DNA of 59,890 nt, the filler included, from Circinaria calcarea (Eukaryota): assembly GCA_051942165.1 (NCBI GenBank). It is 6 parts of 6 records of this genome, joined end to end, with 100 filler letters (N's around TTAATTAATTAA, not from the genome) between each part and the next. Parts side by side here need not be neighbours in the genome. Positions count along the whole stretch, not along the records: positions 30,030 to 39,919 come from JAVECS010000874.1; 5 more parts are not named here. One strand, given 5' to 3'. The translations under genes were made by a program, and so were the position numbers. Below, piece after piece: positions 25-39,919 of this stretch. The notes under the pieces are model-generated. The model saw nothing but the letters and a program-made list of their open reading frames with translations, was not told the DNA's origin and made no database searches. Every line of letters starts with the position of its first letter. The first letter of the stretch is position 1.

Positions 25-1048
25 GATTCAGCAGAACGCTCAACACTCCCCTATCTTCAAGCTACCTCCAGAAGTCCGCAACCGAATCTGGTGGTATGTG
101 TTTGGAGGGCAATTCGTCCATATATCGTACATCAAAGCGGCAGACACAAGCGACGCGGACGACAACGGATGGCGGAATGCGTGTTGCGTCGCACGGACTG
201 CCGAAAGGAAAGCATACAAAAAAGCTGCCAAAGCGTACAGAAAGTCGCAGCAAGACAACAAGGAGGATCAAGAGATCATCGCCAGCGGTACTAGTAGCCT
301 TATCGACGCCGAGATCCACAGAGAGACGACTTTCAGAATTCGACATAAGCGATGTGCCAGGCTAATCGACTTGGATCCGGATTACGAGAGTGATTTCAAG
401 ATCGGATGTCGGCCTGAACATCGCTTGCAGCTTGCGCTGCTACGGACTTCTCGTCAGGTGTACTGTGAAGCCAACCACATCCTCTGGTCGACCAATACCT
501 TCTCTTTCAACCATGCGAATACTGCCAAGATGTGGCTTAGCAATCGGAATGCTACGCAGAAACGCTCACTGAAAAGTTTGCACTTCACGCTTGGGTGGAG
601 CTCCGAAGGAGAGTTCCCATGGAAAGGTGTGTTCCCCATGAAGATTGTCAAAACCTTTGTCGCGCTACGCCTTCTCCGCCTCTGTATTGAGCAGTACGGG
701 CCGTTGGAGGAAATTGAGGACGTGATCTGCCGACCTGGAACAGGATGGAAATTATGGACCGAAGGCATCCTGCGTTTTCAAGTACTCCCTCTTGAGAAGG
801 TTGCTATCCTCTTTGGTGATTCTAGTTCTAACGAACATGATCTCCTCAACATCGCGAAGAGAGTAGAGTGCGCCGAGATCCTCGAGAAACGCTTGCTTCA
901 CCCGAACAGTTTAGAAGATTACCAGGAGAAACGGGCGGATGAGATTGAAGAGGCAGAAAAGAAGCGGTTGTTACTGAATGGGGAAGATCCGGCAGAGGAC
1001 GATCCTTTGGATGGGATAAAAGACAAACTCTCGGACGATGAGAAGTAA
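25..1048 (+). CDS. F-box-like / DUF7730-type fungal protein, probably 5'-partial
   Basis: SPIFKLPPEVRNRIWWYVFGG and LALLRTSRQVYCEANHILWSTNTFSF are typical of this fungal family. Bases 4-24 (ctaat...tag) look like an intron branch site and acceptor, so the ATG at 14 may not be the true start. Confidence 0.6.
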
Positions 1049-2255
1049 AGATATGGATATGATGATGAGTGGAGACATCGGTTTCATGCGTGACTGATGA
1101 AAAGTTAACGATGAACGGGATAAGGATCCTCGACATTGCGATGTCCAAACATAGAAATACATACCCATGCACGATGCCATAACGTCAATTGGTCACCCGG
1201 GTGGGAGTCGCCTTTCCACTTACACTTTGCTAGAAACAAGCTTCAATCACGATTCCTTGATCAACATAGAAAGTGAATATACTCCAGACGTGTAGTTGAT
1301 GAGCGCAAGGCGCGGCGCCTCTTTCGACGAATAATAATAGGTCAGCGGAAACGGCTACTCTTTGAACTTAGCAACACTATACTAGATTAAAATGACAAAT
1401 TCCGATCGCATGGAAGAGTGCATGTTTACACCTTGTACAACAATTCTCGTCGTTCCTAGTAAGATTCAAACGTAAAAGCTGGTGTAATGGGGAAGAGGGT
1501 GCACGAGCCTCATGATCTTGAATTTAGGACGCCAGGCCTTGGCGCTAGTTCTAGGCACGGGCCATCTAGAGATTTGGAATGTTTTTAAACTGCCCAACAT
1601 CACGACCATCTACCAAGATAATGAATGGTAGCTGCTAAATTTACAATCAGGATACACAAGTGAAGAGATATTCTCTGATTGCTTGAAATGCTCCTTTGCT
1701 GTGAGAAGTGGGCCTAGACAATCTGATCGTCGCCGCTCTTCGTATCCCCCTAGGGCTTAGATTGCGTTGCACCCCCCATCACTGTCGTCGCGGTGGCATA
1801 TTTCGCAGTGATATCTTCGTTCTAAATCCCCTTTGACTACGAATCACGCTACGATTACGGTTCGAAGTTGCGGAATCTCACTCCCCGATTGCCATTCCCG
1901 GCGTCCGACTCTTCTTCGGTCATTGCGGTTCTTTCTTATTGCTAGAAATAAAGCATGTTTCCAATGGAGTTATAATGTGATTGTCTTGTTGGCTTTGTTA
2001 TACGTGTTACTGTTCGCAGGTCTCGACGTTTGCGGGTATATAAACCCGGATGCGGCGAGATCTCCCATTATTGGTGATGCTTTGTCTATCTATACCTCAT
2101 GAAAGGTTTCCTCATCCTCACCGAATATTTATCTTTATTACCATTGGTAGCGCGCACGATCAGAACTTTATCTGTTCCTGCTATCATTTAACACTATAAA
2201 TCTGCTTCGGAAACAACCTCGTAATCAATCTCTCCTTCCGGTTCCTTTCATCGTC

Positions 2256-4608: not shown

Positions 4609-5120
4609 CCCAGTACCAATCTAGATTCTTATCGCATAGAATGGGGCGCTTGGCTTATTCGATACTACTGTGCCAGAAACAAGACGTTTATCGTGTTGTT
4701 AACCTAATACGGGGTAGAAGTCCATAGGATAGAAAAAAGAGGTTATTTTAGAAAAAAGTCGAGTTACAACGTGTGAAATAATAAATGGTAAAACAGGGTG
4801 GAATAGGCTGTATTGGCTATGGTAACTACCACTCTATGTGTATGGACTTCACTGTGGAACTGCATAGCAGAAAACCTCTGCTATATGTGCGTTCGGTGGT
4901 TACTTCAACCGCCCCGAATACTTATTCCTCCACGTAGTGTAGAATCCCCTATTCTTGACACAACGTAAACAATATAGAATGTTGGGGGCAGTGGAAGACC
5001 TCTGGTCCGTTATATTGCTATAGAGGTGTACTGGCAGACTATATACAGCTACCATTACGCTAGTCCTATTCCGGCTCCGCCCCCTGCGGGTTCTACCCCT
5101 ATGATCTAGCCTCCTTTCAA

Positions 5121-5230
5121 CTATATTTAATATAACATTAAATATAATATAATATTTAATATAGTATTTAATATATTATTTAATATAATATTTAATATAA
5201 TACGTTATAGAGCACGTTATAAAGTATATT
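5121..5230. repeat. Extremely AT-rich, TpA-rich tract (RIP-like decayed repeat)
   Basis: Almost no C/G; repeated taatatt/tttaatata; abuts the Helitron-like element. Confidence 0.6.
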
Positions 5231-9918: not shown

Positions 9919-10018
9919 NNNNNNNNNNNNNNNNNNNNNNNNNNNNNNNNNNNNNNNNNNNNTTAATTAATTAANNNNNNNNNNNNNNNNNNNNNNNNNN
10001 NNNNNNNNNNNNNNNNNN
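9919..10018. other. Artificial contig linker N44-TTAATTAATTAA-N44
   Basis: Six-frame stop linker flanked by Ns. Confidence 0.98.
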
Positions 10019-30029: not shown

Positions 30030-31414
30030 GGTCAACTGATTCTTGGGACCTCGGAAAATAACTGCAAACACCTTGGCCTCTATTGATTTATCGGACTTTC
30101 AACCCCAGTGTCATGTCATCCTGCCTCGGAATCAGAGTACAGCTCAATTCTTTACCGTTCACTCCCAGTGTATCACTACATGGCAGGCCCCTTCGGGCGA
30201 GCGAAAACCAAATTTCAACCGAGACAAGTTGCGTCCACCATCGCATAGCCAGATTTTCAGGCCAGGTTAGCTCGGGACTATGATCATGCTTTGCATCGAG
30301 GTTGCAGTTAGCAAGGCCACACCGAGGTAACGGCCACATGCAGTCTTAGCTTCGTTGGGTTGGTCGACTGACGACTCCGTTTCGTGATGCCTGCATATGA
30401 CGAATAGGACTTGATGAATCGAGTTTCCTAAGTCGCCAGTCTAAAAAAGGGGCTGATGGAGGACCGGCGGGGAAGACGGTCTGGAATTACCTTGATGTTC
30501 CACTGAGAGCATGCGGCGAGGTATCAGGGAATTTGAATTTACTCCTGTTCCCGCAGGGAGGCGCGGGAAAAGCTAGCTCGTACGCTGGAGGTGTGCATCA
30601 GAACGTACCTATCTGGTAAGAGATATTGTGAGACCTATTGCCTAGCTCCCGGACTAGGGGGCAGACGGGAACCAAGATAGTGCCCGCTACGCCGCTGCCG
30701 TCTCCCGAGACAGCTCCTACCCTTGACTCAAGCTCCTTCCGCCAACCTCCCCCTAAGACCCCAGAACAAGTCTCTCCAGTGCAATGATTTGCTAAGTGCG
30801 CAGGCGCCCAGCGACACTTTCTCATGCTCGAGTGCTGTGCCGTACAGATGCTGCAAGGGTGTGAAGCATCACTTCGAAGGATGCATATGTTCTAGGCATT
30901 TGTTGGTTTCCTGTTCAACCACACTTTCGCTAGCTCTGGCGTATCCCAGTTATGTAGATCGAGATGGTAGATTTTGGGGGTGGGTAGGTACGTGCCTCCA
31001 AGGCTGCCGCATGAGGTTGATGCTCCGAATTCGAAGCAAGGCTTGGATCCGACAGTAGGATTCGGTGACGACAACTCTCAGCCTTTCCATGTATGTAATC
31101 GTATTTCTTGCATGATCGACCGATCCTCAGGAATAATGCCGCAATCGATTTGCAAGGTTACTTTCCCGATGTTCATCCTTTGCCAGGTGACCTCGCGGGT
31201 GTTCTCGGCCCTGATTAGTGTTGTGACACGTTATTTAAGTCGGTGACAAAAACGCTGATTTCTCGTGATAACATGAGGCTATGCCAATATAATACTTCGT
31301 ATTATATTCGACGAGGATGTCGAAGCATTCGAACATATCATTAGTTTTCAAAAGATCTTCTGAATCGCAGTTCTAAAACCCACTAATTGTCACTCTATCT
31401 CAAAGCACTTCAAT

Positions 31415-32301
31415 ATGGCAACTCAAAGCCAGCCTACCATCGTCATCTGTTCCGGTTCTTTCCACAAACCTGAGCATTATCAGCCCCTCGCCAGCATCTT
31501 GGAAGGACGGGGCTTCGAAGTGAAATGCCCTATCCTTCCCACCAACGCCGTCTCTGGCGTCAGTGCTGATGACATCTCCAACCCCGAGTTCGATGCCCCT
31601 CCACCAACGCAGGGATGGCCAGATGGCTATAGTGATGCTGAGGTTGTTAGACGCGAGATTGAGAAGCTGGCTGATCAGGGCAAAAAGATCCTTCTGGTTG
31701 GTCACAGCTACGGTGGCTGGCTTGCTACTGAGAGTGCCATCCCTGAGTTGCAGCACCAAGCACGGACGAAGGAGGGTAAGGAGGGCGGCGTTGTCGGGAT
31801 CTTTTACGTCTCCGGCTATATCCTCCCGAAAGGCCAGTCGATCGACTCATTCTTTTCCCCGCAAGGAGATGCGACACCGCCACCACCATTTGTGATGCTT
31901 CACGTAAGTAGCATCTGTGGTCGAAAGGGATTGCAAATCTGAATTGACGGTGTACACAGGCGCCTGCCAAACAGGGTCTGGTAACGCCCATCCAAGCCGA
32001 GGAGTACTTTTTCCATGACTTGCCGAAGCAAGAAGCCCGACGCTGGGCTTCCGAGCTCAGAGCTCAACCAGTCATCAAGTCGGTCTTAACACATCCATCG
32101 TATGTTGATTTGCCCTGCGGCTACCTACTCTGCAAGAACGACAAGGTGTTCCCTCTTGCTGTTCAGGAGATGATGATCAAGACCGCAAGTGATCAAGGAA
32201 GCCATGTGAAGACATACGACTGCGAGAGTGGTCATGCTTCATTTCTGAGTTGGAAGGACGGCCTCGCAGGCTTGTTGGAAGATTTTAGCAGTAATATGTA
32301 G
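31415..32301 (+). CDS. Alpha/beta hydrolase (Abhydrolase_6-like)
   Basis: IVICSGSFH, LVGHSYGG nucleophile, YLLCKND acid residue, ESGHASF catalytic His. One intron at ~31904-31959. Confidence 0.88.
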
Positions 32302-32520
32302 GCATGATACTTGCACGAATATTCATGATGTTAGGGCATGAGTCCTCGTTCGTAAGCTTACTGTCATTACTAAATACGAACCAATGACTCAGAAACATTA
32401 TCCCCCAAGACATAAATACTATTTTCTTGCACCCATTTCACCAAATGCTTTGATGTAGGCTTATGACTGTGTTACATTTGTCCATCTTGAACACTATCCG
32501 GCCCAAAGCTTTTGATCAAC

Positions 32521-33492
32521 ATGGCCCATGAACTGCGTGATACCTATGAGCACACCCGCCTAGGCAAGGAAGCTCAGCGGTGAGTACACCACCTATGGTC
32601 GGATCCAGTAAGTATTGAAGAAGGCTACCCAAGCTGAAGCTTTGCCAGTCTAGAGGCGCAAGGTGCTGCATGGACAACGTATGTCTCCTTCAAACGCTAT
32701 TCTCTTCACACAAAGTACCATGTTTGACCCATCACTAGAAACATTGGATACCACCTTCACGAAAAAGTTCGCCAAAGTTTCCAAGCCGAGCTCCACGTTG
32801 CCGACGTGGGTTGTGGCACTGGCTCTTATCTGGTCGAGTTGAGCCAGGAACTGCCCTCTAGTAGCCACTTTGACGGCTTTGACATTTCCTCCACGCAGTT
32901 TAACAACTCGCTCCCAGACAACGTCACGCTTCATGTCGCAGACGCTAAGCAGCCTTTCTCGGCCGAATTCCATGGGAAATTTGATGTTGTCCACCTTCGA
33001 CTTTTGGTTTCAGCCTTCTCCAAGGACGATTGGGAACCGGTCGCCAAGAACCTTTCTCAACTTTTGAAACCTGGAGGTGCCATACAATGGGAAGAAGCTG
33101 ACTTGCCCGGCACGAAACGACTCCGAGGCAAGCCAGGCACGTCGGTCGACGCACTTGATTACGCACTGCAAACGATGGAGGATGCCCTGATTAGCAGATA
33201 CTCTTACGGTTTCAACACTTTGCCTCAAGCTTTCAAGAACGTCGGCTTCCTTGCTGTCTTTCAAGACGTTGTGAGCTCTGACCGTATTCCTGAGACTCGA
33301 GAAAATTTTGCGCGAGTTAATGTTCAAGCTTGTGCGGGCTGGGCCCGCTGGATGGCATTGGAGCGAGGCCAGCCGATATGGGCGGAGCAAGACCTACAGG
33401 AGCTGGAGCGGAAGATGGAAATGGAAATCCAAATGGGAGCTTATGTGCGCTACGATATCTATGTTACTATAGGCTTCAAACCACGTGCTTGA
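32521..33492 (+). CDS. SAM-dependent methyltransferase (class I)
   Basis: VADVGCGTG, FDGFDIS, GKFDVVHLRLL, LLKPGGAIQWEE. Two 5' introns after ATG 32521. Confidence 0.88.
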
Positions 33493-33661
33493 CTCTCTTT
33501 CGCGATGGCTTCAGAAACTCAGAATTGACGTATATATCACGCAGATAGCATACCGATGACACACGATTACTCGCATGTACGATACCACTTTGCGAAATGC
33601 AGAAATATGACAAAAGCATCAGACTGACCATAGGTGATCCTAATAGAGAACTGTTTAGGTA

Positions 33662-34699
33662 TTAGAACTCTATGAAGAAATCCTCATTCAGTGATGATGG
33701 CAAGTTCCAAGCATTCAGGAGCGGCATAAAATAGAGGGACACTAGCCACAGATTCCACAAGCGGAAGGTATTCTTGTCGGCTTTGACTGTCCTCTTCCAA
33801 AGACAACGCCCTGCCACTAGGAAACCTAGAGAGACCGAAGGAAGGCTGGGAAACGTGGATAGGCCCCATAACCATGGACTAAATAACGACCAAAATGCCA
33901 TAGTAGAGGCGGTGACCCAACGCGCTTCGCAATCGCCAATGGCCAATGGCATTGTTCTGCGACCTCGATGCGAGTCACCTGCCTGGTCATACATATCCTG
34001 TGTCTGAACCGTCGAGAATACGATGCTCCCGATAACAAAGAACCAGAACGCAAGGCGAATAATGACTATTCTTAAGTTCCCGATGATAACCTCGAGGGCT
34101 CCAGAGGCGAAGCATATAAAGCCGCAGGCATTGATGAAATTTCTGACAATATAGTGATAGTCCGCACCTCCGAACTCGTTGTACCAAGCCCCAAGGAATG
34201 TCAGGATTAAACTTTGGGCAAGTCCACCGAATAGGAGAGAGAACATCATTGCCATAGGGTAAAGCGCAAGCATAAGCTTCTTAGCTTGCTCCTGAGTCAT
34301 TCTTTTGGAGGGCATCGTACGCCAAGGTTTGTTGATACAATCTTCGTCTATGGCTGGCTGCTGGCGCTGGTTATCGATTGCAAAGGGAAGCAGGTTGATC
34401 CAAGTCCAGATCAAAGCCAGAGGAGTGCGGTATAGAAGGGACGAAGATGTGTCCTTGACCAACCCAAAACGTGAAACCGCCAGACCGTGGAGGACTGCGA
34501 AGGCGGTGCTCGGTACAACGATAGTTTTGAGGTCGCTGCGCGTGAACAGCCATACTGAGTATGCATGATAGTGTAGCTTCTCCATATGAACACGTAATGC
34601 CAACGCTATTTCCGAAACTTCGAGGGAGCTTAGTTGATACCTTCCAGTACCCTTTTGCTGGAGCCCGTAATATCGTGTTGAGAATTTGAAAGGAGCCAT
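33662..34699 (-). CDS. UbiA-superfamily membrane terpene cyclase/prenyltransferase (Fma-TC-like)
   Basis: WLFTRSDLKTIVVP, DNQRQQPAIDEDCINKPWR, WYNEFGG, QDMYDQAGD..RGRRTMPL, FRLWNLW. Start uncertain (34699 or ~34587). Confidence 0.82.
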   Translation of the reverse strand: MAPFKFSTRYYGLQQKGTGRYQLSSLEVSEIALALRVHMEKLHYHAYSVWLFTRSDLKTIVVPSTAFAVLHGLAVSRFGLVKDTSSSLLYRTPLALIWTWINLLPFAIDNQRQQPAIDEDCINKPWRTMPSKRMTQEQAKKLMLALYPMAMMFSLLFGGLAQSLILTFLGAWYNEFGGADYHYIVRNFINACGFICFASGALEVIIGNLRIVIIRLAFWFFVIGSIVFSTVQTQDMYDQAGDSHRGRRTMPLAIGDCEARWVTASTMAFWSLFSPWLWGLSTFPSLPSVSLGFLVAGRCLWKRTVKADKNTFRLWNLWLVSLYFMPLLNAWNLPSSLNEDFFIEF

Positions 34700-35064
34700 G
34701 GACAAGCTAATTCCTGGTCAGAAAAAGACGAGAAACCTGGACACGCTGCTATAGATGAGGAACACCCTAGGACTTCAATATATATATTTCTGAGCACTAG
34801 TCTTAGCTCGAGCCTTGTAAGGTTTAAGTTATCTACTAATGGGCAAAGCAGGACAGAACACGCAATGTGCTGATGATTTGTGGCTGAGTATGGAATGGAT
34901 AAAGGATAACCCCGAAGAAAGGAACATAGTACAGTGAAACCTCCAGATAACGATATTATACGTAATGATAACCCGCGTGTAACGATACACTTCTCGAAAT
35001 AGTGTGGTAAAAAACAACGATAGCATCTCAATGTTCCACCAATATCGTTAGCGTTCCTAAAAAC

Positions 35065-35200
35065 CTTGGTGCGGACCGTTACATCGAGGCTATAAATATG
35101 CAAAATAATCATACGAACATGGATAAATAGCTTGGTGCGGATCATTACACCGAGGCTGTAAACATGCATAATGATCATACGAACATGGAGAAATAGCTTG
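35065..35200. repeat. 66-bp imperfect tandem duplication
   Basis: cttggtgcgga...catacgaacatgga.aaatag at 35065 and 35131. Confidence 0.85.
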
Positions 35201-35989
35201 AGTATGTATGATGATAGCATGGGCATGCATAGTGGCGGCACAAGCTGTATAGTGGAGGCATGAACAATGTCAATTGTATATGCCAAAGTATAACGATGAC
35301 CTTGATGTTAGAATACGAAAGTGGCAACGAGCATCTCCTTCTTCATTAGGGTATTGCTTAAGCAGGTAGAAACGTGCACACCTGGGATATGGAGATTTTA
35401 TTATCGTGGGGAGCAGCAGTGTGGACTCCCTTTGGATAGGCGAAGTTGGTGGATAGCATTTTGATTGGCCGCATGTGAGAAAGGATGCCGCCGTCACCAA
35501 ATCAGCCCGCAGCGTTCGGTGACTCAAGATTCCGAAAGAACTGGCCACCCGGCAGGACAATCTCCGATCAGGATGGAAACCCCGTTGAAGTGCTATCTCG
35601 GGGTAAGCATCGGCGGATGGTCGCCTTGTACTCATGTTTATGGAGTAGATTTGGCCGTGCTGTGCTTACTCTAGGCAAAGCCACCTGCTCATGTTCCACC
35701 CGACTACCCTGCATCAGAAATCCCCTTCGAATGCTTCCGCAAACCCGCACTGACTTCAGGGCATTCCAAATCTACATGCGTTTTGTCAACCTCTGGGCGC
35801 TGTCATGTCTGCGTACATACAACGCTTCCCTGAACACTAGGCTAATTGAGCAATGGATTTCGGCATCAGTCTATCCCTAATTTGCGGCTGGAATCTCTCG
35901 CTGTCAACTGCTATTTACTCTTCGTCTCCTTTCCATTCTCTTACAGATAGAAGTTACTATCGTTTCCTCAACGGTGACCTCAACAAGCT

Positions 35990-37343
35990 ATGACATCCCT
36001 ACCAGGGCCAGCTATCAAGTTAATAGCTTGCCATGCTGTCTTGACAGCGTTAGCCGCGCTTGCAATTACCCTTCGCGTGGCTGCAACATTCGTGAAAAAG
36101 CGAGCTTTTCGGTCTCATGACTACCTTAGCTTTCTCTCTTTGGTACGCTCTTCGCTCCAAGGTGCTTGGCATTTGATAGTAACGGGCCTAGATATGTTTA
36201 ATCGGATATGTGGCCGATATAGACTATGGTTTGTTCGCAAGATTGACCGAGGTCTCATAGCTCACAGGTCCAAAGGTGCTGTGCACGGTGGCATTGGCTT
36301 GCACGTAACACAGCTTCGATCAATCGAGCAATCGACAATCGGATTGAAAGTAGGTTAATTGAGAGAATATTTTGTCTTTGCTATAGCTGACAGTTCGTGA
36401 AGGTCTTTTATGCGTCCCAGTATTTCTTTACGATGGTCACCGCCTGCAATCGACTATCTATTTTATCACTCTATATCGAAATATTCCGTAGGAAGTCGTT
36501 TCTCATCGCCGCTAACATTACCACTATATTGGTCGTTGGGTGGTGGCTTGGCTCGATGCTCACCTCCATTCTTATATGCCGACCCATCAGCTTAAATTGG
36601 GACAAGTCCATTAATGGAACCTGTGGAGATGTATTCAAGGTCGAGCTTGCTTCTGCCTCATGGAATCTTATTTTCGACCTCACCCTGGTCGTACTTCCAA
36701 TGCCAGTACTATGGACCCTTCAAATGGCACGAAGAATAAAACTGGGAATCTCCGCTACTTTTGGGTTGGGGATCGCGTATGTTACATTTCCCGAAACCAA
36801 AGATTCTCCTTCCGGTCCGCCCCTTCAATGAGTTCGTTGCTGATGTTGTGGCTTTTTAGGATTGCCGGGGTCAACATTGGCCGCATCGTCCAAACAGCCG
36901 TCTCCAATCAGCAAGATTTCACTTACGTTGCCGTAGACGCTTCTATATTGGCAGCAGCGGAGGCTTCTATAGGTCTGATTGTTGTTTGCGCACCCACGTT
37001 GGGTCCAATCATTGCTCCGAGTCGATACGGCGATAGTGCAGACTCCGATAGGCGGCGACTCAAGCGTAAGCCATATACAGGATTTTCAAAGCAGACAACC
37101 ATCGGCAGCAATGGAAGAATCGGCGTTTTTAGACATGATAAATCCAGACACCTCTCCGCTCAGAGGCCTGCAGGGAAAGATGATTTCGAAATGCTTGCGA
37201 ATGGCTCACAGGATGGAGACTTGGCAAATACGAAAGACGATCACATTCGATCTAATGGAAGTCCAGAGGCCTTTGGGAATAATAGGATGGAAGCGAAGAG
37301 GGACAATCACGTAGACCTACATTCAACGCCAAGAGAAGTGTGA
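35990..37343 (+). CDS. PTH11-like (rhodopsin-domain) integral membrane protein without CFEM
   Basis: Spliced 7-TM reading: HDYLSFLSL, GAVHGGIGLH, RLSILSLYIEIF, ICRPISLNWDKSINGTC, DLTLVVLPMPVLWTLQM, EASIGLIVVCAPTL. Confidence 0.85.
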
Positions 37344-37407
37344 GGAGTCTGAACAAATGGACGAAGGACTATTTCCTTTAGCATGAGTAAGTATAGTATA
37401 TAGTAAC

Positions 37408-37532
37408 TACGGCGAATATCTCCCACGCACCCCTAAGATGCCTTTTATTGCTCCCACGCACCCTATCATATCTACTACGCACCCCCCTAAAATGGTACGC
37501 CCACGCACCCCCTCCCTTTATCACCGACGCAC
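37408..37532. repeat. Array of CCCACGCACCC-type motifs, possibly a DNA-transposon terminus
   Basis: Five copies of (c)(c/t/g)acgcacc in ~110 bp, starting just after a TA. No partner end was found in the contig. Confidence 0.45.
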
Positions 37533-38103
37533 CTCTTCATTTATTCCGTAAATTTTTACATAGAAAAATTATTATAAGCGGTATATGTGATGCCGTAGGG
37601 CCCTTTACATCAAAAGAGCCTAAGGCGAGATATGTGGTAATGTGAGGCACGAGCAATACGAATCCCGTCGCCTTCGCAGCTGCAAGTATGTGGCAGATAT
37701 TTCAAAAACAAAACGATCTGCAGGTCTGCCTTGGGTAGTGAGCTTGCGGCATCTTAGTCAATCGGATTCTCTGAAAGCTGGCCATCAGCTCATACGAGCT
37801 GAGTGGAATACGCAGCCGAGTCATCGACGCTGCTGTACAGTGCCACAGCTGTGGTCATCAGGACTGCAGAATCCTTCAAAACTATGAGTGCTTCTAATAG
37901 TAACTGCTCTAAAAGGAAGATCTTACCTCATGAGGCTACTACGTGGCGACACTGGAAGGAGAATATGGCTCCGTTGGTGCCAAAGCTCTGTAATATAAAG
38001 TAAGCACATGTCTTGATGTTTCAAACCGCAACTCCCGCAAACCAAGCAATTCCCCCAAAAAGTCTCTCATAAATCTTGCCGCACTGTTCATCAATATCTC
38101 AAA

Positions 38104-38395
38104 ATGCTTCTCTCTACAATACTCATCTTGGCCTTTGGCCTTATGGCGTGTGGCGCTGCACCATCAGTCCTACTAGGTACGGCGATGCGGCTACAGCTAG
38201 ATGGGTTATACTAATTAGAGTCTAGGAGCCGTTCAAGCTCGTGCTGAGGCATCAGGTCTGTCAGCGTCAAGATACGAAGTCGATTTTTGATCTAATAATT
38301 CATTCAAAGTAGATAACGACGAATATATTGTCTATCCGGATGTTGACCGGGACGAGGACGTCGTCTACGCGTATCATGCCATTAATGACAAGTAG
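38104..38395 (+). CDS. Three-exon secreted micro-protein (~63 aa) with two acidic Tyr-containing repeats; candidate RiPP precursor
   Basis: Exons 38104-38176, 38226-38255 and 38310-38395. Both introns are GT...ctaat...AG, phase 1. Product: MLLSTILILAFGLMACGAAPSVLLGAVQARAEASVDNDEYIVYPDVDRDEDVVYAYHAINDK*. Confidence 0.72.
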
Positions 38396-39919
38396 GAAGT
38401 GGTAGATTGAAAGACGGCAATAAGTCAACGGCTTGGAGATAAAAAAGGCGTATTTGGCAGATCCACGTCATGTCGAGAATCCTGCGGTCCTAATATATTG
38501 TAGAACCGCAAGCTCGTTACTTAGATTAGATAGTCAATCAACAATCTTTGATACTAGATTCAATGCGGGTACTCAAATACCTGTGATCTTGCACCCAAAC
38601 ACCGTGTGATCACCGTAGTTAGACTTGATGGCTGAAAGCCACCGGGCCGAACTCCCTGTTTAAGGCCATATCAGGCTAAAAAATTCGTTAAAACATAACA
38701 AAACTACCTTATCCACCCAAATTGTATATCCGCTTTTCCCATTTGATAAACCGAGAATACGGGTGGGTTTCCATGTATATCCTTGTAGCTGATAGAGTCT
38801 TTTCACAGCTGCTAAGCTTCAGACGTGGCACGGCAAGAATGCGTGGACCAGCCAGCCAAAAAGCACCCGAGACCCTCATTCCTAGTTTGTAGCTAATAAC
38901 GGCACAGTGAAGCAACAAATTGAATTGATTAGACGGACGAAACCCGTGCGATCATCTAGCCACATAGCAGAGCACCGTCGAATCGATAAAGTCTCTTATA
39001 TATAAGTAACCCAAGCTTGCATGTATACCCGATGGTGTACTTCCGAACTTCGCCGTAAGGATCTACACTGAAAAGGTGGGTTGCTTAATGTAGTAGAGTA
39101 AGCTAATTGTTATCCCTGCCACGTACGTGATGAGTGCATTAACTTCCGTCTACCACTATAAAGCTAGTTAGTATGGCACGGATTGACCGACCAAGGAAGA
39201 TACGCACGCATAATGCTATGGATGCCGCATTGTTCTAATCACCTAAGCTGCCTTATGCAGACGGTTTGATGCTCCCGCAGTGTAACAAGCAATAATTTAA
39301 TTGGTACGGGATACTGCCAGCGCATGCGGCACAGAAATAGTGTGCCTTTCGATTGGTTGTTCTTGTATTCTATGAAGGTAGTATGCTTTTGATCCTCTGA
39401 GCTCTTGACATCATGCAAGACGCCCTCCACAATCGGATGACCCGTTTCAAACAAACTATAATCATTTGGGTGTCTGCGCCGGGAAATTCAAGTCGTTCCC
39501 TGCGGAGTTTCTTCCCCAAGAATATGTGGCAGTACCCTGCGCCTAGGAATGCACAAGACTTGCCTCAATAACCCAATTTCTGTATGTACGCTCTGCCGTG
39601 CTTTTAAATTAGTGTCGAGTTGTGCTTGGCAATGATCAGAGCTCTTGAATCGTGATTGCGTAGTAATTCACGTATTATCCTTTCGAAACACAAGGCTATC
39701 GTGCCTGCTCTACGTGGAATTCTTATTTTTATTTGCCCGCAATCTCTCTAGATCATCATAATAAGAGCCAAAAGCCATAAAAATACTATAATAGAAACAG
39801 ATAGACCATCGCAAAACTGTATCAAAAATATTACACGCCTTACTCCGCTTAATAATAAAATATAAAAATTCTTATAATAATATATTTATTGATATTATTA
39901 TTTATTAATAATATATCAC

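Follow-up and report, generated by a model that had tools for sequence, protein, structure and literature searches.

The window, a 59,890-nt stretch of Circinaria calcarea DNA, carries a small three-exon gene that we consider, with moderate confidence, to be a detached second copy of a conserved Pezizomycotina small-peptide gene encoding a single-unit, tyrosine-cross-linked RiPP precursor. Sequence comparison indicates that the gene is real and that its last exon is under strong purifying selection. The window consists of six stretches joined by N-spacers, and the gene lies on the fourth (30030-39919), corresponding to contig C874 in a fragmented assembly (31.5 Mb in 5,512 contigs). C874 is 9.9 kb long and ends 1.5 kb downstream of the gene in AT-rich DNA.

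As read from the sequence, the gene occupies plus-strand positions 38104..38395, with its ATG at 38104 and a TAG stop codon at 38393-38395 (Table 1). The first-pass annotation had proposed clean three-exon splicing to a 63-residue product. The three-exon model stands, but the length is 61 or 62 residues, since the figure of 63 counted the stop codon. Both acceptors of intron 2 preserve the reading frame: AAG, the one used in the earlier model, gives 62 residues plus stop, and TAG gives 61 residues and an 83-nt last exon. The 61-residue product is slightly favored, because the best model, alone or in a tie, has an 83-nt last exon at each of the four other loci modelled and because TAG is a stronger type of splice acceptor than AAG. 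If TAG is in use, the first Tyr motif of the peptide may be without its Val. A phase-1 intron at the site of intron 1 is also the top or tied-top model in four of four other loci, a two-intron phase 1/1 model is possible at all five loci, and exon 1 of the window gene resembles exon 1 of its paralog on contig C283. By a simple splice score the window model ranks joint first among 123 two-intron models that fit, so that the splice signals by themselves are no proof of the gene model, and the splicing given here is a prediction. The signal peptide proposed earlier agrees with a hydrophobic N terminus (judged by hydropathy only; Kyte-Doolittle 9-mer values of 2.1 to 2.9 over the first 16 residues) and with the N termini of homologs, which end in A-x-P in seven of seven full-length models. 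In the metagenome locus L063, the first intron of the precursor homolog (9939-9988, plus strand) is best modelled with a GC donor.

Table 1. Features of the window copy of the precursor gene, in window coordinates
Feature	Position	Strand	Basis or remark
TATA-like box TATAAA	37994..37999	+	Seen in sequence, putative element; ~105 nt 5' of ATG
Exon 1: predicted signal peptide (~18 aa, ends before A-P), pro-region start	38104..38176	+	Sequence, homologs
Intron 1, 49 nt, phase 1, GTACGG..TAG, branch-like ACTAAT	38177..38225	+	Inferred from sequence
Exon 2, 30 nt: pro-region with VQAR, short spacer after	38226..38255	+	Splice model
VQAR, predicted Kex2-type aliphatic-x-x-R site, in exon 2	38231-38242	+	Motif, published precedent
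Intron 2, phase 1, donor GTCTGT, tandem acceptor	38256..38312	+	57 nt (TAG 38312, favored) or 54 nt (AAG 38309)
Exon 3: acidic Tyr-rich conserved unit, then stop	38313..38395	+	9 D/E and 4 Y in 27 aa
Exon 3, first half with VYP	to 38338	+	Homolog alignment
Exon 3, second half with VVYAY, invariant tail after	38360-38374	+	Homolog alignment

Comparison of exon 3 with the genome gave two matches, itself and the paralog on C283, with which it shares 93% identity over 27 aa. In the final 25 sense codons, these copies show 15 synonymous codon differences and 1 non-synonymous one, with 16 of 17 mismatches at third codon positions; their flanks align at 52-54%, which we take as the noise level. The pattern expected of purifying selection on exon 3 was seen in 10 of 10 pairwise comparisons of five loci. 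A profile of the two exon-3 frames (window and C283) matched 24 proteins in the 50% library, and a full-length homolog used as query matched 25/25 candidates among proteins of near length. A search of longer proteins gave 3 matches among 8,000 scored candidates, none of a many-repeat form, which is weak evidence. The precursor was found in 11 named fungi, its last ∼27 residues nearly invariant: Bathelium mastoideum, Trypethelium eluteriae, Mytilinidion resinicola, Ophiobolus disseminans, Pseudopithomyces chartarum, Paraphaeosphaeria sporulosa, Periconia macrospinosa, P. digitata, Hymenoscyphus fraxineus, Clarireedia jacksonii, and Thelotrema lepadinum. By the four lineages checked, the hosts belong to the Dothideomycetes, Leotiomycetes, and Lecanoromycetes. 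The seven full-length homolog models measure 59 to 62 aa, with VYP and the last 14 residues invariant, and exon 3 of the window copy retains every invariant residue of the family. All homologs are named hypothetical or uncharacterised; neither the peptide nor any homolog was assigned to a family by Pfam, NCBIfam, or PDB sequence searches, and the ESM Atlas gave no usable match with the 34-aa exon-3 frame. A metagenome scan yielded 19 loci. Three of them are true homologs (L063, L064, and L065); the remaining 16 were dropped as GC-rich (0.63-0.72), the match in each being a 14-15-aa segment of a longer, unrelated ORF.

At the level of the family, the gene has the genomic setting that the first-pass annotation had supposed in calling it a UstYa/DUF3328-type secreted precursor. 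On C283, L063, and L064, the precursor lies head-to-head with one UstYa gene (UstYa-1), which lies tail-to-tail with another (UstYa-2). Exons are 55-78% identical between these loci, and the inferred ATG-to-ATG spacing between precursor and UstYa-1 is 734 nt, 432 nt, and 467 nt, respectively. At L065 the arrangement is partial: the contig stops 0.98 kb upstream, with the 5' end of UstYa-1 at its edge (a weak match; tblastn E of 6e-5). The relatives thus keep the Tyr motifs and have DUF3328 genes as neighbors, where the earlier proposal was to be abandoned had they done neither. A UstYa-1 search at E 1e-40 retained 22 of 342 candidates and found orthologs in 5 of the 11 named precursor species, the other six being absent from the list at this strict cut-off. 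Precursor and UstYa-1 accessions are consecutive in four of these five genomes, and the fifth pair, in Pseudopithomyces, is 11 accessions apart with the same scaffold tag. No precursor match was obtained in several fungi with UstYa-1 relatives; the relatives concerned (P0038, P0044-P0047, P0050-P0052, P0054, P0057, and P0058) come from Paraphoma, Lachnellula, Hypoxylon, Botrytis, Neoarthrinium, Pseudocyphellaria, and Viridothelium, where precursors may be unannotated or diverged. Such gaps between species may reflect limits of annotation or search.

The genome holds 71 UstYa matches on 36 contigs, none of them C874, and UstYa genes occur on 1.2% of contigs of the size rank of C283. On one side of the C283 precursor, UstYa-1 and UstYa-2 are followed by an O-methyltransferase and a Dyp peroxidase; on the other side lie an MFS transporter, a rhodopsin-domain gene, and two P450s. 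A rhodopsin-domain gene is present at L063 as well, along with two O-methyltransferases and a P450; C283 and L063 have in common an O-methyltransferase and a P450. Both C283 UstYa proteins carry two HxxHC motifs, as do 4 of the 5 named UstYa-1 orthologs, the short Pseudopithomyces model having one; in the relevant part of a lichen survey, two such motifs are the proposed mark of RiPP-type DUF3328 proteins (PMC12048977). The ORFs selected for scanning on C283 and L063 included no tyrosinase.

The window copy, in contrast to these loci, looks like a detached second copy. A profile search found no UstYa gene or remnant on C874 (best E, 1.4), in line with the first-pass annotation, which had seen no DUF3328 gene on a contig noted to end shortly downstream. 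In the family, UstYa is upstream and head-to-head rather than downstream, which lowers the prospect, hoped for earlier, that a longer contig would show one. The rhodopsin-domain gene (window 35990-37343; PF20684) lies directly upstream of the precursor and ends 761 nt before the ATG. Pfam agrees with the gene content described earlier for the contig: the hydrolase is of the alpha/beta type, the methyltransferase is SAM-dependent, a UbiA protein is present, and the receptor is this fungal rhodopsin-domain (PTH11-like) protein. Nothing in the syntenic precursor loci matched the hydrolase, methyltransferase, or UbiA gene; these three are probably unrelated to the precursor, and the suggestion that contig neighbors tailor the peptide is not well supported. 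The UbiA-family gene (window 33662-34717, minus strand) is apparently intronless and adjoins the SAM methyltransferase and the hydrolase, and the three may form a small terpenoid or prenylation locus of their own. We also considered whether the window rhodopsin-domain gene is a cluster remnant and rejected this, as its closest paralogs lie off UstYa contigs (the first on such a contig is ∼25th in the list); its protein and that of L063 are ∼30% identical, over 71 aa only.

The processing that we propose is modelled on published accounts of dikaritin and epichloecyclin biosynthesis (PMC9233826, PMC10512285, PMC10540207), from which the cross-linking is extrapolated. The signal peptide would take the precursor into the endoplasmic reticulum, and kexin would likely cut after VQAR, freeing one acidic unit of ∼30 residues. 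The two UstYa oxidases would then cross-link the conserved Tyr residues of VYP and YAY, as in ustiloxin or asperipin-2a, while the O-methyltransferase and P450 of the cluster may decorate the peptide, which may also be trimmed by peptidases. In the case of the window copy, whose exon 3 keeps all invariant residues and which we therefore infer to be still under selection, the enzymes would be supplied in trans by the UstYa pair on C283. Because the window copy has no KR, its processing had been expected to be non-canonical. The absence of KR, and of RR, is real, but processing need not be non-canonical, since 15 of 16 precursors carry a predicted Kex2-type site in the pro-region: 13 have aliphatic-x-x-R and 2 are dibasic only, while 1 has neither (there is no Arg in the Mytilinidion pro-region). 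These 16 include five splice models, on which the exon-2 motifs of the DNA loci depend and two of which were picked from ties. The window site has Val at P4, and aliphatic-x-x-R is close to an LxxR Kex2 motif described for fungal effectors (bioRxiv 10.1101/2020.05.27.120113).

Whether the unit is released whole bears on the two cores seen in the first-pass annotation. In that version, other peptidases would split the halves of exon 3, and each half would give a short cyclic product, perhaps through a UstYa paralog of its own. The halves are indeed modestly alike, with an 11-residue internal periodicity and 5/8 identities, a level reached by 1.4% of 20,000 shuffles; the first resembles xTYPD-type units and the second DExxAYAW-type units found beside other UstYa genes in the genome, and further peptidases are described as trimming known dikaritin units (PMC9233826). 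On the strength of these likenesses the two-core version retains some weight, although we regard it as unlikely. The Bathelium homolog (KAI9667915.1), the only repeated one retrieved, instead has the whole exon-3 unit twice, across a KR, and its spacer after the KR begins like the window spacer after its Arg; this predicted protein, which is without a signal peptide, is the sole basis for the whole-unit repeat. Moreover, there is no conserved basic site between the halves, the Arg there being Gly or Ala in 4/16 precursors, and spacer and tail show almost no variation. In 5/16, W, F, or T takes the place of the first Tyr. One kexin unit with two Tyr motifs thus appears to fit the alignments better than two released cores do.

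A quite improbable alternative accepts the family as RiPP precursors and gives the window copy a UstYa of its own, past the contig end or in unassembled DNA, or has it secreted unmodified. The fragmentation of the assembly and the AT-rich end of C874 leave room for this, and the window and C283 copies are near synonymous saturation, so that they are old and could have separate roles. Yet the only ortholog-level UstYa pair found in the assembly is that on C283, the next best (the C1887 pair) being at most ∼52% identical, and the position that UstYa-1 holds upstream in four other DNA loci is occupied in the window by the 3' end of the rhodopsin-domain gene. The assembly has three full-length Rpb2 domains and one partial match; by this one marker, the three full domains fit one fungus, and an assembly of two organisms was rejected. 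We think it very improbable that the peptide is no RiPP at all and is instead a linear secreted signalling or metal-binding peptide linked to a small-molecule cluster of UstYa, P450, and O-methyltransferase genes. The acidity of the unit (∼30 residues, Cys-free) would suit such a role, its conservation throughout differs from RiPP cores, which often vary, and DUF3328 proteins are also described in non-RiPP pathways, where they tailor polyketides and non-ribosomal peptides (PMC12048977, in the part concerned). Against this stand the head-to-head adjacency kept across classes, the double HxxHC motifs, the existence of a KR-repeat form in Bathelium, and the lack of any PKS or NRPS in the set of ORFs listed and scanned for the 17-kb C283 and for L063. 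The reading as a detached copy of a single-unit precursor is preferred.

Other UstYa contigs of this genome carry precursor-like genes. C1887 (L059, about 4700-5155, plus strand) has a classical KEP with about seven KR-separated units with YPD, flanked by a UstYa pair; this pair is the nearest paralogous pair to that of C283, and the unit of its precursor likewise has an acidic stretch, followed by YPD. On C883, UstYa genes lie ∼1.4 kb from a KR-separated three-repeat precursor with AYAW units (L043, about 930-1120, minus strand). C830 (L044, near 9339, plus strand) and C832 (L048, near 2672, minus strand), both UstYa contigs, carry acidic peptides that appear to consist of one unit, end in AYAW, and are candidate non-repeat precursors.

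Besides UstYa matches, rhodopsin-domain matches are expanded in this genome (at least 165), and the two coincide more often than expected. In a count for this one genome that used the best 150 of 165 matches (150 scored of 313 candidates), rhodopsin-domain (PF20684, PTH11-like) genes were present on 11 of the 36 UstYa contigs versus 1.41 expected from size-matched contigs, a ∼8-fold excess reached in none of 200,000 simulations. The 11 contigs are C52, C195, C253, C283, C320, C715, C832, C883, C946, C1120, and C1815. Control contigs showed no enrichment, whether they carried PKS genes (4/35 versus 2.47 expected) or O-methyltransferases without UstYa (2/31 versus 1.06). Literature listings gave no relevant report of a link of UstYa/DUF3328 with rhodopsin-domain, PTH11, or GPCR genes. 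Each of the three long loci examined has a rhodopsin-domain gene near its precursor, but these genes are not close orthologs, which weakens a ligand-receptor reading. A wider conjecture, which we hold to be rather improbable, is that tiny intron-split single-unit precursors supply what is missing from many orphan DUF3328 clusters and that the window peptide is a polycyclic, Tyr-cross-linked signal read by PTH11-like rhodopsin-domain proteins; near-invariance across three classes would then reflect a signal rather than a toxin.

Fungal RiPP mining seeks repeated, KR-separated precursors, so that a gene of the window type is missed. A Venturia study also screened for repeats, and the passages concerned in the 2025 lichen survey report no repeated precursors in conserved DUF3328 clusters and suggest single-core ones (PMC12048977). 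The present family is a concrete, widespread single-unit example, a ∼60-aa gene with two oxidase genes in cultivable fungi; we do not claim that it corresponds to either clan of that survey (PMC12048977). A literature search for single-core fungal RiPP precursors returned nothing relevant. Four core motifs had no mention in open-access papers; subscription papers lay outside the search, and a prior description is possible. Given the invariant tail and the UstYa neighbors of the relatives, the precursor likely yields an undescribed cyclic peptide. Its near-invariance across three classes is unusual, since most KEP types were found in one genus in the corresponding part of the KEP survey (PMC7329392). 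The detached yet constrained window copy suggests that precursors can work away from their own cluster.

Acalitide was considered as a relative and rejected as protease-cyclised and unrelated. A likeness to the Tyr-x-Tyr diaryl ether OF4949 was also considered, but none of the papers listed mentions that compound. The KEPs of Umemura 2020 (PMC7329392) are likewise secreted, with Tyr- and Asp-rich units, and the Bathelium homolog has their KR-separated form; in the sections concerned, DUF3328 neighbors are given for 22% of them. Since KEPs are repeated and the window family is not, it falls outside that survey's definition, and Periconia macrospinosa PVI08124 is absent from the 22 KEPs listed there for that genome (PMC7329392). 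K2PP effectors with LxxR pro-domains likewise have a short pro-region ending in aliphatic-x-x-R, but, as far as the preprint text goes, they release folded domains, whereas the window family would release ∼30 Cys-free acidic residues and has Val rather than Leu at P4 (bioRxiv 10.1101/2020.05.27.120113). GigA, the epichloecyclin precursor of Epichloe festucae, is similar in its kexin unit of ∼27 residues, in an aliphatic P4 (LXKR), and in Tyr-based cyclisation by a DUF3328 protein, as proposed here; it is a precedent for 27-residue kexin units with a short core plus a follower. In the sections consulted, it differs in having four repeats, one DUF3328 gene, a Lys N-methyltransferase, and cores unrelated in sequence (PMC10540207).

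The closest comparison is with the dikaritin precursors UstA (ustiloxin), PhomA (phomopsin), and AprA (asperipin-2a), which likewise have an ER signal peptide (a predicted one in the window family), acidic residues next to Tyr motifs, and UstYa neighbors (a pair in the case of ustiloxin); a methyltransferase and a transporter are also nearby on C283. Dikaritin precursors have many Kex2-separated repeats (16 in UstA and ∼5 on average, by the figures given in PMC10512285), whereas the window gene and all retrieved homologs except that of Bathelium have one unit. The predicted cleavage site of the window family is also mostly monobasic, unlike that of dikaritins, and its core motifs match none of YAIG, YVIG, and YVIP, the cores given in the portions of the dikaritin literature covered. 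The ustiloxin/phomopsin subtype has a tyrosinase in its cluster, which the scanned C283 and L063 ORFs lack. The window gene would work like a dikaritin precursor but, because its unit is not repeated and the window copy is away from its enzymes, where dikaritin precursors lie beside theirs, it is a variant and not a plain member of that class.
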